A DNA stretch of 64,000 nt. Origin: an uncultured Alphaproteobacteria bacterium (GTDB taxonomy: Bacteria > Pseudomonadota > Alphaproteobacteria > RF32 > CAG-239). The stretch spans positions 13,126 through 77,125 of the forward strand of contig CALXUN010000004.1 in the NCBI GenBank assembly GCA_944391705.1, read 5' to 3'. Made by a program: the position numbers and the translations under genes. Under the pieces are notes generated by a model that saw only the letters and a program-made list of their open reading frames with translations, was not told the origin of the DNA and did no database searches. This document shows positions 5,304-25,563 of this stretch, one piece after another (the first letter of the stretch is position 1; every line of letters begins with the position of its first letter).

Positions 5304-5985
5304 TACCGGCAACAAAATCAAGTTCTTCCGGCAAAATCTGGTGGTCAAGCGTATTAAAAACTTTTACGGCTACCGGAATATTTTCCTGTTGCAGCCATTT
5401 TTTGGTATAGTCCAGGCATTTAAACAAAACCGTCTGGTCTTTTTTGCCATGCAGCAAATAAACTGTCGGCCGCGAAACAATTTGAAGATCCAGATGTTCA
5501 TCAGCTGCCGCAAGCCCGGAAAACGAAAAGCAGCCGGCCAGTTCCTGCATTCTGATTAAAGCCGTCCAAATTGCCAGCATTGCCCCTTGTGAAAAACCGG
5601 CAATATAAGTATTTTTGTCACGGAAACCATATTTTTTTTGCATATCGTCAATAAAAAAATTTATATCCATTGCCGTTTCAAAAAGTTTTTGCCCGGCCTG
5701 ATTATAAATTTTTGCGATTTCTTCAACCGGTGTTTCTTCAAGCCGGCGCTTGTTTTCCGCATCAAAACCGGAAACCTTATACCAGCTTTTGCGGGCCGGA
5801 TCTTTTTGTGATACATTTCCTCCTTCCGGTGCGGCTATGGCCAGACCCGGAAGTTTTTGCTGCAAATACTCATATACCGGACGCATTTCATCACGGGTAT
5901 TATTATAGCCGTGTAAAAATACCAGCAAAGACGAAGCCGGTTTTTGACTTGGAAAATACTGACTTTCAAAAACTGACAAAACCAA
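5287..5985 (-). CDS. Phospholipase/carboxylesterase family alpha/beta hydrolase
   Basis: 232 aa with a GFSQGA nucleophile elbow and an FLHGxN oxyanion region. Confidence 0.7.
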   Translation of the reverse strand: MVLSVFESQYFPSQKPASSLLVFLHGYNNTRDEMRPVYEYLQQKLPGLAIAAPEGGNVSQKDPARKSWYKVSGFDAENKRRLEETPVEEIAKIYNQAGQKLFETAMDINFFIDDMQKKYGFRDKNTYIAGFSQGAMLAIWTALIRMQELAGCFSFSGLAAADEHLDLQIVSRPTVYLLHGKKDQTVLFKCLDYTKKWLQQENIPVAVKVFNTLDHQILPEELDFVAGIIGKK

Positions 5986-19659: not shown

Positions 19660-22017
19660 ATGGCAACTTTAGACGAATTGCCGCGCGGCAAAACAGCAAC
19701 AATCACAACGGTTTTGGGAAAAAAAGATTCTTTAAGGCGGCACCTGCTTGAAATGGGACTTATTCCCGGCACGGACGTAACTTTGGTTAAAACCGCACCG
19801 CTCGGCGATCCGCTGGAACTTAAAGTCCGCGGTTATGAACTAACTTTGCGTAAAGCCGATGCTAAAAACATTGTCATTAAAGACATCAGAAAAATTTCCG
19901 CCTGCCCGGTTGAAATTCCCGCGCAAAAAAAGGACATATTCACGCGCAAAGGCGAAAAAAATGCTCTAAATCTGAAGACCGCCGGTGAAATTATTCCGGA
20001 AGGAGCACCGCTTAATTTTGCCTTGGTTGGTAATCAAAATTGCGGTAAAACCACCCTGTTTAACCAGTTAACCGGCTCCAACCAGCACGTCGGCAACTTT
20101 CCAGGTGTTACCGTCGACCGGACGGACGGGCAAATCCGCGGTTTAAACAACGTATCCGTAACCGATTTGCCGGGCATATATTCGCTTTCGCCTTATTCTA
20201 AGGAAGAACTTGTCACACGCGACTTTTTGCTCAAAAACCACCCGGATGCCATCATAAACATTGTTGATGCCTCAAACATTGAGCGCAATTTGTTTTTAAC
20301 GCTCCAGCTGCTGGATTTGCGCATCCCAATGGTCATTGCCTTAAACATGATGGATGAAATCAAAAAAAACGGCGCCTCGATTGATATCAACCGTTTGGAA
20401 CAGACCTTAGGCGTTCCGGTCATTCCGATTTCTGCCTTAAAAAACGAAGGCGTCAATGAATTGATTGAACACGCACTCAATGTAGCCCGCTACCGCGAAA
20501 TCCCGGATAAAGTTGATTTCTGCCTCTGCGGCGGCAAAGACGACGGCGCCGTCCACCGTGCGATTCACGCAATCTCCCACTTAATTGAAAACGACACCGC
20601 TAAAGCGGGAATCCCTTTGCGTTTTGCGGCATCAAAACTGGCTGAAGGCGATGAACCGATATTAAAATCTTTAAAAATCGATGCTGATCATGCTAAAATT
20701 CTGGAAAATATCACTAACCAAATGGAACAGGATTCGCATCTTGACCGCGAAGCGGCCGTTGCCGATATGCGCTTTTCGTTTATTGACAGGCTTTGCGCCG
20801 AATGTGTGTTCAAACCGGTTTTAAGCAAAGAACGTGCCCGGAGCGAAAAGTTGGACCGCATCTTAACCGGAAAATACACAGCGTTGCCGGTCTTTTTAAG
20901 CCTGATGGCCCTGATTTTTTACCTTTCATTCGGCCCGTTCGGTACTTATTTTTCGGATTTGATTGAAAACCTGATTGCTGCCTTAGGTAATATGGTCGGA
21001 ACCGGACTTGATGTTTATGGCATGAATCCGATCGTTAAATCATTTATCATTGACGGCGTATTCGCCGGCGTCGGCAGCGTGTTAAGTTTTCTGCCGGTTA
21101 TTGTTTTGTTGTTTTTCTTCCTCTCCCTTTTGGAAGACAGCGGCTATATGGCGCGCGTTGCTTTTTTTATGGATAAACTGTTACGCAAAGTCGGTTTATC
21201 CGGGCGCAGCTTTGTCCCGATGCTGATTGGCTTTGGCTGTTCGGTACCGGCCATCATGGCCGCCCGCACCCTTCCGTCCGAACGCGATCGTAAAATGACA
21301 ATTATGCTTACTCCTTTTATGAGCTGTACTGCCAAACTGCCGATTTATGTTTTACTGACTGCCGCCTTTTTCGAAACCCGTCAGACTCTTGTTATTATCA
21401 GCCTTTATATGTTGGGAATTCTGATTGGTTTAATATTGGCCTTCATGTTTAAATCCACCTTATTTAAAGGCGAGGCTGTGCCTTTTGTCATGGAATTGCC
21501 GAACTACCGTCTGCCGGGCTTAAAAAATGTCTGGCGGTTGATTTATTACAAAGCCAAATATTTTATTACCAAAGCTTTCACCATCATCTTTGTGGCAACA
21601 ATCATTATCTGGTTTTTAAGTACATTTGACAGCAGGCTGAACCCGGTATCCGATTCTTCTGCAAGTATCTTAAGTGCCGTCGGCAGCCTGATAACGCCGA
21701 TTTTTGCCCCGCTCGGCATTAATGACTGGCGCTTATCCACCGCATTTTTAAGCGGTTTTGCCGCCAAAGAAAGCGTCGTCAGCACTTTGGGCGTCCTGCT
21801 TGAAGGAAACATCGACTTGCTGCCGCAGCTGTTAACACCGTTAAGCGCTTATGCCTTTTTGGTTTTTTCACTCCTTTACACACCATGTGTTGCAGCTGTT
21901 GCCACCGTTAAAAAAGAACTCGGTTTGCGTTATGCATTATTTGTGGTTGGTTTACAATGCGCCATTGCCTGGATTGTTGCCTTTATAATTTATCAGACGG
22001 GACTGCTGATTTTTTAA
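19660..22017 (+). CDS. feoB: Ferrous iron transporter FeoA-FeoB fusion
   Basis: 785 aa; N-terminal FeoA SH3-like domain (~75 aa), then G-domain (GNQNCGKTTLFN) and the polytopic FeoB permease core. Confidence 0.9.
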   Translation: MATLDELPRGKTATITTVLGKKDSLRRHLLEMGLIPGTDVTLVKTAPLGDPLELKVRGYELTLRKADAKNIVIKDIRKISACPVEIPAQKKDIFTRKGEKNALNLKTAGEIIPEGAPLNFALVGNQNCGKTTLFNQLTGSNQHVGNFPGVTVDRTDGQIRGLNNVSVTDLPGIYSLSPYSKEELVTRDFLLKNHPDAIINIVDASNIERNLFLTLQLLDLRIPMVIALNMMDEIKKNGASIDINRLEQTLGVPVIPISALKNEGVNELIEHALNVARYREIPDKVDFCLCGGKDDGAVHRAIHAISHLIENDTAKAGIPLRFAASKLAEGDEPILKSLKIDADHAKILENITNQMEQDSHLDREAAVADMRFSFIDRLCAECVFKPVLSKERARSEKLDRILTGKYTALPVFLSLMALIFYLSFGPFGTYFSDLIENLIAALGNMVGTGLDVYGMNPIVKSFIIDGVFAGVGSVLSFLPVIVLLFFFLSLLEDSGYMARVAFFMDKLLRKVGLSGRSFVPMLIGFGCSVPAIMAARTLPSERDRKMTIMLTPFMSCTAKLPIYVLLTAAFFETRQTLVIISLYMLGILIGLILAFMFKSTLFKGEAVPFVMELPNYRLPGLKNVWRLIYYKAKYFITKAFTIIFVATIIIWFLSTFDSRLNPVSDSSASILSAVGSLITPIFAPLGINDWRLSTAFLSGFAAKESVVSTLGVLLEGNIDLLPQLLTPLSAYAFLVFSLLYTPCVAAVATVKKELGLRYALFVVGLQCAIAWIVAFIIYQTGLLIF

Positions 22018-22762
22018 ACTGACAGCCGGCATATTCTGCCAATATCGGAGAAAGGATTTCTGCCCATTCGGTACTTCCTTTTTCAATGTCGGCAAATTCA
22101 TCATCGCGGATTTCAATCAGCGCATAATCAAGTCCGTACATTTTGGCAAAATGAACAGCCGTTCCCGTATCATAACGCCTTAAATCATACGGTACGTTTT
22201 GAGCAACAACCTTATTTGTTTTCTGCTTCAGACTTGAAAACACAAATGAAGCCATAGGTTGCGGCCGGTGGAACAATATTCCGGCCTGCCACGGCCTGAA
22301 TGCGCCACCTTTCAATTGCGGGGTAAAACTATGAACTGAAAAAATGACCGGCTTGATTTGGCATGCGGTTAAAGCATCAAGTTGTTTTTCAACTGCCGCA
22401 TAATAGGGACGGTAATATTGCAAAATCCGCTTTTCTCTTTCTTCTGCCGACAGGTTCTGATTTCCCGGAATTAATGTTTGGTCGCTTTCTGCAACAATCA
22501 GTTCCTGCTCATCTTCATTCCGGTTCAAATCAATCAGCAACCTGGAATATTTTCCGGTAACGGCAAAACAGCCGAGCTTCTCAGCCAGCTTTCGCGTTAA
22601 CGCATAACACCCTTTATCCCGGGCAATATGCGTATCCAAAGACACGGCACTCAATCCGAGGTTGTCATATTCATAAGGAATATCAGCAGAGGCATGTTCA
22701 CAGGTCAAAATCAGCCGTTTTGTTGAATTTTCATTAAAAATCTCAAAAACATTATTTTCCAT
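21983..22762 (-). CDS. N-formylglutamate amidohydrolase (FGase) family protein
   Basis: LTCEHAS and LIDLNRN motifs typical of FGase-fold zinc amidohydrolases. GGAGG RBS; its ATG overlaps the last 4 codons of the upstream gene. The track ORF extends to 22828, but ATG 22762 is preferred. Confidence 0.55.
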   Translation of the reverse strand: MENNVFEIFNENSTKRLILTCEHASADIPYEYDNLGLSAVSLDTHIARDKGCYALTRKLAEKLGCFAVTGKYSRLLIDLNRNEDEQELIVAESDQTLIPGNQNLSAEEREKRILQYYRPYYAAVEKQLDALTACQIKPVIFSVHSFTPQLKGGAFRPWQAGILFHRPQPMASFVFSSLKQKTNKVVAQNVPYDLRRYDTGTAVHFAKMYGLDYALIEIRDDEFADIEKGSTEWAEILSPILAEYAGCQFKKSAVPSDKL

Positions 22763-24467
22763 ATCCTTTTGCCTCCACGATTTTCTTATTAAAAGCTGCA
22801 TTAACATACGCAACTTTACCGGTTTCATTTAAAGCGTGCATAATCAGCCGCCAGTATTTCTGTTCTTGTTCAATAACATTTTTTGAAACCTGTCTTTCCC
22901 GCGGGTGAAAAGAATCATACTCATAGTCATAAGCATACGGCAAACGGTGTATAACGGTTTTAGTATCCGTCTGCCGGTTATTATGCCAGGAATATTTGTT
23001 TAGCAAAATCCGGTTAACATGCACGGGACTGTTCTCTGCTGCAGAACGGACAAACTCACGGTTAAACTCCAGAAAGGCTTTCACAAATTTTTTATTGAAA
23101 TTGGCATTCATAAAACGCATCTCAACCGTATGTTCCGGCATAATATTTAAGGTTTTATACTTGTGTCCGAAAGAAGCAAACTCCTGAAGCTGACGTTTAT
23201 CGTCGCACAAATCAACCATCAGGCACAAAAAAGGATAATCGCCCCGGCCGTCCCGGCTCAAATTCCGACTGATATAAGTAGCATAAAGCAACTTATTGTC
23301 CCGCCGTTCCGGTGCGGCAAATGCCGAAACGATTTTTTCTTCATGCTGCATCATGCGTTTTACAAGCCTCTTATAAGCAGCCAAATCCAACCCGTCCGCC
23401 GCCAGATGCTGATGCAGGGAACAATGAACATTAACATGGCCTTCATTAAATGCATCAAGAATTTTCAGACAAGATTCCTCATCTTCTTTATTTTTCATGA
23501 TACGGCTGGCATATTCAACCGCTGCTAATTTATTATACCGGACCAGACTTTCATCACGCATAATTACACCGGCAGAATTTTCATCGTGATAAACTGAGGC
23601 ATCTTTATTGCTTGAATAAAGTTTCGACCACTCATTTTGACTTTTCAAATATCCAATCAGCCGGTCATAATCCCGGTATTTTTCCGGAACATAAAACTCC
23701 AACTCAAAACCGCACGGCCAATACTTTTGTTCAACCACTGTCCCCGGTGTTTCAATTTGAAACATATTCCGCCACGCTTCATTCGTTTCTGAAATGTTTG
23801 CAAATTCTGTTTTAAGGCGTCCTTTTAAATCTAAAAGTTTTTGCATGGTTTGCCGGCGGAAATTAAAGTCATATTCATCATGATAGCAATATTTGCCGGC
23901 CAGAGTTTTGCGTAAAAACACATCCGCTGCATACGCTGCCCGGACGGAAACATCACCCTCGGACGTCAGAGAAGCATAATTCTTATCCAAAAACGACAAC
24001 ATATCTGCCGCAACCATCATACCGTATTGTGCAGAATATGGCATATTGGGTTTAACCGGCCAGCCCCTGAAAGCATTGTCATGATCTTCCCGGTCAGCAA
24101 AATTATACATAAATTGCCGAAACTCAAATCCAAAAGTTTCCATACCATCAATCAACTCGGAAAGCTCACCGGTTTTATCTTTGGAAAAATCCGAATTTTT
24201 TAAAACACTTAATTGCGGCTTGTCCGCATTGTAAATTTTGATGCGGGCACGCATATCTTTAACAAATTCATGAAATTTTTTTGCACCCTGCGGCCCGTAA
24301 TATTTATCAAAATAAGCAACCAGCCCGGAAAACGGGGAAAGCATGTTGTCAACATGCCAGTCATAATAGAACTGTTTGAATTTTTTACCGCCGATTACTG
24401 CAAAATAATCCGAAAAGACGTTTTTTACTTCTTGTACCGTATGATTTATATTATTATCCTGTTTCAT
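22752..24467 (-). CDS. Large hypothetical protein (571 aa), possibly a glutamine-synthetase/GCS2-like carboxylate-amine ligase
   Basis: CDS is confident. Function is inferred only from GFELEFYVPE (two Glu on a strand), HCSLHQH and EMRFM motifs reminiscent of the GS/GCS2 fold, and from coupling to an FGase-family gene. Confidence 0.4.
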   Translation of the reverse strand: MKQDNNINHTVQEVKNVFSDYFAVIGGKKFKQFYYDWHVDNMLSPFSGLVAYFDKYYGPQGAKKFHEFVKDMRARIKIYNADKPQLSVLKNSDFSKDKTGELSELIDGMETFGFEFRQFMYNFADREDHDNAFRGWPVKPNMPYSAQYGMMVAADMLSFLDKNYASLTSEGDVSVRAAYAADVFLRKTLAGKYCYHDEYDFNFRRQTMQKLLDLKGRLKTEFANISETNEAWRNMFQIETPGTVVEQKYWPCGFELEFYVPEKYRDYDRLIGYLKSQNEWSKLYSSNKDASVYHDENSAGVIMRDESLVRYNKLAAVEYASRIMKNKEDEESCLKILDAFNEGHVNVHCSLHQHLAADGLDLAAYKRLVKRMMQHEEKIVSAFAAPERRDNKLLYATYISRNLSRDGRGDYPFLCLMVDLCDDKRQLQEFASFGHKYKTLNIMPEHTVEMRFMNANFNKKFVKAFLEFNREFVRSAAENSPVHVNRILLNKYSWHNNRQTDTKTVIHRLPYAYDYEYDSFHPRERQVSKNVIEQEQKYWRLIMHALNETGKVAYVNAAFNKKIVEAKGYGK

Positions 24468-24756
24468 ATCATCCTCTTAAAACCAAAAAACACAAACTTA
24501 AAGTGTGTGGCGTTTTCCCCCCTGAACGCCCACACTTTAAAAACACATGGATGGAAACGCTCAGAGGCTGGTAATCAAGAACAGAATATTAATAAGGATA
24601 AAAGAAATCAGGCATGCCAAAATACGGCCTGAAAACAAGGCCTTAAAAAGAAATGAAGTATTTTGACACACGTTAATCATAACAATCCTGATATCAACAA
24701 CACTTTTATTAAAATAACAGAAAAAAAAACAGAATACAAGATTTTTTTTTATTTTT

Positions 24757-25563
24757 TTAATACCAACCGAATAAAGATTGACCACCGTCAAGCACCCGGA
24801 TTTTTTCCATATCCTCCGCATCCAGCTGAAAATCGAAAATATCTATGTTTTCTTTTATCCGTTTTGCACTGGAAGATTTTGGAATGGCAGGAATACCGTT
24901 TTGTACCAAAAACTTCAGAGCAATCTGCGCCGCACTTTTACCGTACTTGCTCCCGACCGTCCTCAAAATATCATTATGAAAAATATCTTTTTTTCCTGCC
25001 GCAAACGGACTCCAGGCTTCCATAACCGTGCCGGATTGAAGCAAACGGTTTTTAAATTCAGACCGTTGATAAAAAACATGGGCTTCTACCTGGTTTACAA
25101 CCGGAATAATCCGACAGCCTTTCTTAAAATTAAAATAAAAGTCCGGATTAAAGTTTGAAACACCGATGGCCTTGATAACCCCTTGATTATAAGCTTCCTC
25201 CAAAGCCCTATACATCTCTCCGGCTTCCCGGTACGGTTCATGAATAAGCATCAAATCAAGATAATCCAGCCCCAGTCGCTCCAATGAATTTTCCACCGCT
25301 TTTTTTGCGCCGGCATAAGAATTATCCGGCGCACAAATTTTAGATGTAACAAAAATTTCCTGCCGGGACACACCGCTAAGGACAAGTGCTTTGCCGACTT
25401 CTTCTTCATTGCCGTACATCCGCGCCGTATCAATCAAACGATAACCACACTCCAGCGCCGATAACACGCATTCCACACATTGACGGCCGCGCAAATCCCA
25501 TGTACCCAGACCTAAAACCGGCATTAAAACTCCGTTATTAAGCGTTACATATTCCATTTTCAC
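24757..25563 (-). CDS. Aldo/keto reductase
   Basis: 268 aa AKR fold with LGTWxL, DTAxxYGNE and IGVSNF motifs. Confidence 0.85.
   Translation of the reverse strand: MKMEYVTLNNGVLMPVLGLGTWDLRGRQCVECVLSALECGYRLIDTARMYGNEEEVGKALVLSGVSRQEIFVTSKICAPDNSYAGAKKAVENSLERLGLDYLDLMLIHEPYREAGEMYRALEEAYNQGVIKAIGVSNFNPDFYFNFKKGCRIIPVVNQVEAHVFYQRSEFKNRLLQSGTVMEAWSPFAAGKKDIFHNDILRTVGSKYGKSAAQIALKFLVQNGIPAIPKSSSAKRIKENIDIFDFQLDAEDMEKIRVLDGGQSLFGWY

Follow-up and report, generated by a model that had tools for sequence, protein, structure and literature searches.

A conserved amidoligase–FGase gene pair behind an upstream open reading frame and a structured leader RNA in uncultured gut Alphaproteobacteria

According to the Pfam description of Amidoligase_2 (PF12224), Iyer, Abhiman, Burroughs and Aravind reportedly predicted in 2009 that the gene neighbourhoods of these enzymes handle peptide-like metabolites or peptide tags, the partners reportedly being a GATase-like thiol peptidase in proteobacteria or an AIG2 cyclotransferase in firmicutes. 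Here we describe an amidoligase locus in a 64,000-nucleotide (nt) stretch of DNA, hereafter the window, from an uncultured Alphaproteobacteria bacterium (assembly GCA_944391705.1, contig CALXUN010000004.1, positions 13,126 to 77,125). The locus resembles those predicted systems in its glutamine synthetase (GS)-like core, its motif set and its amide- or gamma-glutamyl-cleaving partner, but the partner is an FGase metallo-amidohydrolase in 49 of 51 related loci and not a GATase or AIG2 protein; only the distant relatives P0132, P0134 and P0164 have a Peptidase_C26/GATase partner. Standalone Amidoligase_2 proteins have about 270 residues, whereas the protein here has about 570, of which 245 form an N-terminal domain that is an orphan in fold, and its gene stands behind an upstream open reading frame (uORF) and a leader RNA with pseudoknot-type pairing (Table 1). 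So minimal and strongly conserved a two-enzyme module is a good place to find an Amidoligase_2 reaction, in hosts that are abundant uncultured Alphaproteobacteria of gut and rumen and whose small-molecule metabolism is nearly unexplored.

An amidoligase and its FGase-family partner

The initial annotation of the window, made by a model from the letters and their open reading frames (ORFs), saw no obvious family in the 571-residue protein, read its motifs as those of a GS/GCS2-like carboxylate–amine ligase, and paired it with a hydrolase of the N-formylglutamate-amidohydrolase fold. The first point needs correction: Pfam places the large protein in Amidoligase_2 above the gathering score (28.2 bits against a cutoff of 22, E = 2.2e-6, residues 298-472), and a precomputed PF12224 match is present in most of its relatives. 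The PHROG family ‘amidoligase enzyme’ matches as well (E = 8e-6), and NCBIfam gives no match for the protein. For the small protein, the match to FGase (PF05013; 118 bits against a cutoff of 28.9, E = 8.5e-34) confirms the proposed fold, and both assignments are those that the annotation had expected of a profile search.

Sequence searches of the amidoligase against the PDB, with the single sequence and with a profile, returned no match. An AlphaFold2 model built on 29 relatives (pLDDT 89, pTM 0.90) consists of an all-helical N-terminal domain (residues 1-245), an alpha/beta core (about 250-480) and C-terminal helices. Searched against the PDB with Foldseek, this model found the YbdK/GCS2 carboxylate–amine ligases 1r8g and 1tt4 as its top matches (probability 1.0, E = 3e-3), followed at lower probability by Dop/PafA and glutamate–cysteine ligase; the anticipated GS/GCS2-like fold is thus borne out, and no unrelated fold emerged. 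Identity to the YbdK structures is 12-13% and the TM-scores are 0.24-0.36, low because the amidoligase has extra domains.

The GFELEF motif picked out in the initial annotation lies at residues 253-258, with E255 and E257 invariant, and its ExR-type motif is the invariant E449-x-R451; the HxxH motif, by contrast, is really an HxH (H352-Q-H354), with H348 nearby. Eight residues (E255, E257, D305, E318, H352, H354, E449 and R451) never vary among 29 close relatives, and their equivalents are invariant or nearly so in distant relatives at 14-37% identity. By analogy, the ExE strand, HxH and ExR presumably make up a metal–nucleotide site, and the protein, whose fold is of GS/GCS2 type, is probably an ATP-dependent carboxylate–amine ligase. 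Its N-terminal domain is of another kind: modelled separately (pLDDT 84) and searched alone against the PDB it gave only noise in Foldseek (best E = 1.2, probability at most 0.13), it has no Pfam match, and in a profile search of 1.84 billion representatives it occurred only fused to the amidoligase core. PADLOC recognised no defence system in the pair, giving only 15 bits to an unnamed model. A paper on Klebsiella CfmP, taken up as a lead, was set aside; it concerns an ATP-grasp enzyme and not Amidoligase_2.

The closest solved relative of the FGase partner is Atu2144, an uncharacterised Agrobacterium protein (2odf; E = 2e-27, or 1e-38 with a profile), and 23 partners all keep the motifs CEHAS, DxNR, HSF and E-I-R-D. 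Were it an ordinary histidine-degradation HutG, adjacent to the amidoligase by accident, the Pfam family would be accounted for, and so would the label ‘N-formylglutamate amidohydrolase’ that relatives carry in their sources. We find this hardly credible: the HutG-type structure 2q7s reaches only E = 2e-3, the hutG equivalog TIGR02017 of NCBIfam scores 42.7 bits, far under its cutoff of 278.75, no hut genes are found among the called genes of the locus, and the adjacency, with overlapping frames, is kept in 49 of 51 species. By sequence comparison, then, the partner is classed as of Atu2144 type and not as a HutG.

The two genes, annotated as translationally coupled, overlap by 11 nt, which comprise part of an amidoligase Tyr codon, Gly, Lys and the stop. 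The conserved FGase start is the ATG at 22762-22760, which independent gene calls on near-identical contigs also chose and from which homologs align at residue 1 or 2 of the 259-residue version; the GGAGG ribosome-binding site noted earlier is found at 22776-22772, 9 nt 5′ of this ATG. A 281-residue version starting at an ATG at 22828 has no support from homologs and was rejected. At its other end the FGase gene is convergent with feoB (19660..22017, forward strand), as annotated, and overlaps it by 35 nt, leaving no space for a terminator between the convergent genes. The forward-strand segment 19313..22017 encodes a CsoR-like metal-sensing repressor (Trns_repr_metal, 91 residues) followed by this fused FeoA-FeoB protein (785 residues).

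Table 1. Positions of the coding and leader features of the locus, in window coordinates
Feature	Position	Strand	Basis or remark
Amidoligase ORF, 571 residues	22752..24467	-	ORF table
Amidoligase residues 1-245, family-specific all-helical N-terminal domain	23733..24467	-	Model
Amidoligase residues 246-571, GS/GCS2-like catalytic core, C-terminal helices and stop codon	22752..23732	-	PF12224, PHROG, fold
FGase-family (PF05013) amidohydrolase, 259 residues	21983..22762	-	Pfam, homolog-supported start
uORF, 39 codons and TGA, MINVCQNTSFLFKALFSGRILACLISFILINILFLITSL	24561..24680	-	In-frame conservation; hydrophobic C-terminal half
H0 and H1	24612..24671 (H0 about 24671-24658 with 24625-24612; H1 24642-24626)	-	uORF 5′ half
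Core leader element (P0, Pa, Pb)	24474..24581	-	Covariance model R1
P0	24579-24570 with 24484-24476		Last uORF codons against SD-proximal segment
Pa	24567-24559 with 24527-24519		5′ strand contains uORF stop TGA (24563-24561)
Pb (hairpin stem)	24538-24531 with 24507-24500
Inner GC stem, then U-run	U-run 24490-24485		3′ of Pb
Amidoligase Shine–Dalgarno (SD) sequence, AAGAGGA	24478-24472

A word-indexed search with the amidoligase returned 112 clusters at 41-99% identity, nearly all of 555-590 residues, whose few named members are uncultured Alphaproteobacteria. For comparison of loci we took one genome per species, giving 51 loci, all from metagenome-assembled genomes of gut, rumen or faeces, labelled Alphaproteobacteria, Acetobacter, Azospirillum, Rickettsiales or Rhodospirillales. 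In 49 of them, alignments place an FGase homolog directly downstream of the amidoligase at offsets of -7 to +32 nt, which agrees with the co-occurrence that the initial annotation had called for. When ORFs were clustered across the loci, amidoligase and FGase were the sole common genes; the next real cluster is confined to one clade, in 15 loci. A scan of viral contigs found no relative of the pair, which is thus not evidently phage-borne.

Hydrolase swapping in distant relatives

Beyond this group, the profile search returned 85 matches: fragments, about ten full-length relatives, then the standalone amidoligases of about 270 residues. The full-length relatives (580-950 residues, 14-37% identity) have both the N-terminal domain and the core, and in five of the nine distinct contexts looked up an amidohydrolase gene lies directly downstream: an overlapping AstE/AspA-family gene after P0129, Peptidase_M20 after P0120, and Peptidase_C26 after P0164 and at the end of the P0134 and P0132 clusters, which run PrnB-like, aminotransferase, radical SAM, RimK ATP-grasp, amidoligase, Peptidase_C26, a GNAT gene coming next in the P0132 locus. 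In a sixth, a PF00144 beta-lactamase-family gene stands two genes downstream of P0118, a protein with an LPG_synthase_C domain at its N terminus; alanine racemase lies between them, and a second amidoligase paralog comes after. A weak Asp/Glu-racemase match (30.5 bits against a cutoff of 31) precedes P0124, and P0156 has a paralog after it. A hydrolase is thus usual beside the ligase, but its family can be exchanged.

FGase, AstE/AspA, C26 and M20 all include members that cleave N-acyl-Glu/Asp or gamma-Glu amides, namely HutG, AstE, AspA, PuuD and CPG2. The set of swappable hydrolases (FGase, AstE/AspA, C26 and M20, with PF00144 nearby) narrows the likely type of bond, and their position beside the ligase, together with small-molecule companion genes, suggests that both enzymes act on one class of small amide. 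This amide is probably a conjugate of Glu or Asp type, and some lineages may involve D-amino acids.

The P0132 and P0134 clusters look like small-molecule biosynthesis. A conserved seven-gene cluster of this make-up, with a long amidoligase, is present in two relatives at 29-35% identity (L065:2619-9552 and L072:2604-10033, the latter with GNAT) and looks like an undescribed small-molecule biosynthetic cluster. At L060:8001-15097, the genes for a 953-residue LPG_synthase_C–amidoligase fusion, alanine racemase and a PF00144 beta-lactamase-family protein are joined by that for another amidoligase paralog (594 residues, no Pfam match, 632 bits to profile A2), a gene set that suggests a pathway to a D-Ala-containing product. 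In one distant clade (L055:1565-5753 and L058:1217-5395) a long amidoligase gene with no hydrolase follows psd-pssA-kdsA, with mreB and cytochrome bd nearby in L055; our impression, and no more, is of Chlamydiota-like gene content. One apparent fusion, P0112 (638 residues, on an ENA contig of 5.4 kb), in which a secreted Glug-repeat protein is in frame with a C-terminal amidoligase segment seemingly identical to P0066, was rejected as most likely a chimeric assembly.

The uORF and the leader RNA

The uORF starts 5 nt 3′ of an AGGA (24689-24686), and an ORF of 36-44 codons ending at the same helix position was found in 48 of 50 leaders, the other two being cut by contig ends. Of 32 leaders scored, 26 have an SD-like motif before it, and the other two frames are open in one and none of 32. 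Across its last 18 codons U makes up 68% of codon position 2, against 34% at position 1 and 49% at position 3; the last 19 residues are strongly hydrophobic across clades (hydropathy 1.7-2.9), the peptides end in hydrophobic ...ISL or ...LWL, and in the window Ile and Leu take up 13 of the last 21 codons. As a short ORF with its own SD and a conserved frame and position, the uORF has the makings of a leader peptide and is predicted to be translated. P0120 also has a 47-codon ORF upstream (L066:233-376), hydrophobic in its tail (…LFFSLSLFIFILSFILRISF) and ending 127 nt short of the amidoligase, its stop inside a predicted helix (CGAAUUAG…CUAAUUCG); covariance model R1, described below, does not detect an element there, and the ORF may be a distant counterpart of the uORF leader.

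The imperfect hairpin that the initial annotation had placed at 24508..24545 is real (-20.8 kcal/mol for 24495-24556) and belongs, as one of several helices, to a larger conserved element within a leader of about 230 nt. In a scan of upstream regions for terminator-like hairpins it recurred before amidoligases with a common sequence (GTGGGTGCTCAGRGG inside AAAGTGTG...CACACTTT), despite differing upstream genes. An alignment of 24 leaders revealed a second invariant block, TTGATTATCAGCCTCTGAGCATTT, which encodes the uORF C terminus and is complementary to two downstream segments. The resulting helices are P0 (CUUGAUUAUC with GAUAAUCAAG), whose 3′ strand adjoins or overlaps the amidoligase SD, Pa (CCUCUGAGC with GCUCAGAGG, the latter inside the hairpin loop) and Pb, the hairpin stem; Pa and Pb are interleaved in the order Pa5′, Pb5′, Pa3′, Pb3′.

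The 5′ strands of P0 and Pa are the last seven uORF codons and the stop, so that a ribosome at the end of the uORF occupies both. This overlap, supported by covariation, is what control of the SD or of a terminator by the uORF would require. The stop falls at positions 5-7 of the Pa 5′ strand and is UGA, UAG or UAA according to clade, the partner strand changing to match.

Over the three helices, alignment A4 has 94.8% of cells paired and double-sided changes in 13 of 27 pairs; shuffled alignments averaged 5.9 such pairs, none of 500 reaching 13, and slid controls paired at 33-52%. Covariance model R1, built with P0 and Pb only and searched against 784 kb, gave exactly one match per related locus, always before the amidoligase and nowhere else; it scores 85 bits on the window (24474-24581, E = 6e-13) and less in other clades. 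In the cross-clade R1 alignment, Pa, absent from the model, pairs in 100% of 284 cells, with six of nine pairs compensatory. Leaders of the L027 group (CUCUAAGUG/CACUUAGAG and UUAAAGCCC/GGGCUUUAA) and the L022 group (CCUCUAGGCG/CGCUUAGAGG) have the same arrangement in other sequences, and a pattern scan of metagenomes found two further copies, both 5′ of amidoligase genes.

Two more helices, H0 and H1, lie in the 5′ half of the uORF. RNAalifold on 21 leaders gave 12 pairs, 11 of them with a double-sided change in at least one sequence; folds of individual sequences agree, and H1 was also flagged as a terminator-like site. Support for H0 and H1 is weaker than for P0, Pa and Pb. The two helices account for the apparent SQN and ILAC peptide motifs of the uORF.

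Rfam 15 has no match at E ≤ 1 on either strand of 21800-24900, and a sigma-70 scan of the same segment found no convincing promoter. The minimum-free-energy fold of the 133-nt leader is unremarkable by itself (z = -1.25); the signal is seen through comparison of loci and not from folding a single leader sequence. Within the window’s clade, hairpin stability correlates with the U-run that follows (Spearman -0.71, p = 9e-5, uncorrected for phylogeny), and the window copy (-17.4 kcal/mol, U-run 24490-24485) belongs to the terminator-like subset. The leader is a well-supported structured RNA outside Rfam in which termination, pseudoknot-type pairing and SD sequestration interlock.

Several variants of the leader were also observed. 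L024 has tandem copies (5709-5812 and 5887-5984); in L023 (5719-5822) and L050 (5747-5850) a single copy is followed by a short ORF resembling an amidoligase N terminus (MSNNNQKSF...), and a separate strong hairpin with a U-run precedes the real amidoligase start. These arrangements look like leader duplication or remodelling. In the L027-L045 leaders (for example L029:5850-5880) a GCUUUAA after Pa5′ is complementary to Pb5′ (UUAAAGC) and mimics Pb3′, which suggests a further mutually exclusive pairing in the L027 clade. A helix P1 between the variable flanks of Pb can seemingly be made out by eye in many leaders, but it is unalignable and we do not claim it. The unpaired amidoligase paralogs at L025:5995-7704 and L046:1687-3363 retain the uORF and leader (R1 matches of 89 and 40 bits), and the gene after the L025 copy encodes a 435-residue polytopic membrane protein.

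Such a leader might be a metabolite-binding pseudoknotted aptamer, that is, a riboswitch in which the ORF is secondary. Five conserved covarying helices, Pa and Pb interleaved as in H-type pseudoknot aptamers, and the confinement of the element to one operon would all fit. We nonetheless regard it as rather unlikely: frame, length, SD with ATG and a fixed stop position are kept in 48 of 50 leaders, and the use of all three stop codons at one helix position is unexpected for an aptamer that is not translated. The two readings, riboswitch and uORF, are compatible and not exclusive.

The uORF product could also matter as a peptide. If, by analogy with PafA/Dop–Pup, RimK–S6 or tubulin ligase/carboxypeptidase, the ligase put an amino acid or amine on a protein carboxylate and the FGase-type enzyme took it off, the co-encoded 39-residue hydrophobic peptide might be the target, through its C-terminal Leu. 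The weak Dop/PafA matches of the GS-like fold, the small ORF always directly upstream, a large private N-terminal domain that could bind a macromolecule and the carboxypeptidase-like fold of FGase enzymes speak for such tagging. The peptide, however, diverges much faster than the enzymes, and what is conserved in it is largely due to RNA pairing (SQN/ILAC to H0, the last codons to P0 and Pa); such a uORF is missing from most distant relatives, which adjoin racemase, aminotransferase, radical SAM and RimK genes typical of small-molecule pathways. We judge tagging distinctly unlikely.

A membrane role is unlikely too, in our estimate. Here the uORF product would be a tail-anchored micro-protein that recruits the amidoligase to amidate a lipid head group or envelope precursor, with the leader enforcing coupling. 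Its hydrophobic C-terminal 19-20 residues are kept across clades of differing nucleotide sequence, with the periodic U at codon position 2, and coupling of the P0 type is typical of co-assembling subunits; yet the hydrophobicity fits a nascent-chain or codon-sensing role equally well. One distant relative is fused to LPG_synthase_C, the C-terminal domain of MprF, and another clade sits after psd-pssA-kdsA, but each comes from one lineage and may be incidental; moreover, no membrane segment is predicted in the amidoligase, and we found no link of FGase enzymes to lipids.

An operon model and its known counterparts

The reading that we favour, at slightly better than even confidence, is of a self-contained operon, consisting of promoter, uORF, structured leader, ligase and FGase-type hydrolase, whose enzymes act on one small-molecule amide and whose expression is gated by the uORF. 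The ligase would join two small molecules by an amide bond through an acyl-phosphate intermediate at the ExE/HxH/ExR site, with the private N-terminal helical domain probably setting substrate specificity, and the product would most likely be an amino-acid-type conjugate with Glu or Asp. The metal-dependent FGase-family enzyme would hydrolyse the same amide or one directly derived from it, making the pair a make-and-release, or make-and-control, module.

Amidoligase expression would be gated by translation of the 39-codon uORF: a ribosome reaching its end must melt P0 and Pa, which would free the amidoligase SD and permit translational coupling or control. In the window’s lineage Pa would in addition compete with the GC-rich inner stem and U-run, adding an attenuator of transcription of the leader-peptide type; where these are present, Pa would act as an anti-terminator that forms only without a ribosome over the stop region. 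Candidate signals are the supply of Ile- or Leu-tRNA, a metabolite that the nascent chain detects, or a ligand that binds to the RNA, and the signal would also indicate the substrate of the operon.

Several points count against this model. If ligase and hydrolase act on a single bond, the outcome would be a futile cycle unless steps encoded elsewhere intervene, and no genes for such steps are conserved nearby. Two loci lack an adjacent FGase gene, although the amidoligases there are paralogous copies (L025 and L046) whose genomes have a paired copy as well (L018 and L012), and P0128 and P0196, which follow psd-pssA-kdsA, have no adjacent hydrolase. The case for Glu or Asp draws on family tendencies, and literature searches turned up neither a characterised PF12224 enzyme with a demonstrated reaction nor a link between amidoligase and FGase. 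As to the leader, Pa and Pb might form together in a static ligand-binding pseudoknot and not be ribosome-sensitive alternatives, the covariation shuffles were uncorrected for phylogeny, and the U-run is found in only about a third of the window’s clade.

A bolder version, which we put forward tentatively and at low confidence, is that the leader represents a new class of cis-regulator, in which a hydrophobic nascent peptide of about 40 codons responds to the pathway’s own metabolite by stalling or releasing the ribosome at a pseudoknot-embedded stop and so switches on a module for a novel amino-acid conjugate, possibly of a D-amino acid; or else that the micro-protein is a third component, a membrane anchor or a ligase substrate. 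TnaC and SpeFL are nascent peptides that control the ribosome in response to a metabolite.

Among described enzymes, YbdK/GCS2 is the best match to the core fold and presumably has the ATP-dependent carboxylate–amine ligase chemistry in common, but it has neither the N-terminal helical domain nor a hydrolase partner, and no sequence-level match to the amidoligase. PuuA/PuuD gamma-glutamylation, the nearest parallel in its logic, is alike in joining a GS-fold ligase to a hydrolase that removes the added group; Peptidase_C26 is the family of PuuD. Here, in contrast, no oxidase or dehydrogenase steps stand alongside, the hydrolase is FGase and not C26, and the ligase is not of the GlnA-type dodecamer family. 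Glutathionylspermidine synthetase/amidase follows a similar make-and-cleave logic. PafA/Dop/Pup shares the GS-like fold (the weak Dop match), a ligase with a bond-cleaving activity and a nearby small ORF; yet PafA and Dop are paralogs, whereas the hydrolase fold here is unrelated to the ligase, and the peptide, unlike Pup, is hydrophobic, fast-evolving and without a GGQ/GGE end. No proteasome genes occur among the called genes of the locus.

The leader is comparable to the trp, ilv and leu attenuators and to ermC, secM-secA, mifM-yidC2 and tnaC, which likewise combine a translated leader, alternative pairings and an SD sequestered by the leader ORF, and the terminator-like hairpin and U-run of the window’s lineage resemble leader-peptide attenuators. 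It differs from them in that the stop codon is fixed inside a covarying helix interleaved with a second helix, and in that the leader ORF is long (about 40 codons), has a hydrophobic tail and holds extra internal helices. Set against these systems, three features are new: an FGase partner for which swapping is in evidence, an N-terminal domain of orphan fold, and the leader with its uORF and pseudoknot. The kind of enzymology is as expected, and the leader is the more surprising part.

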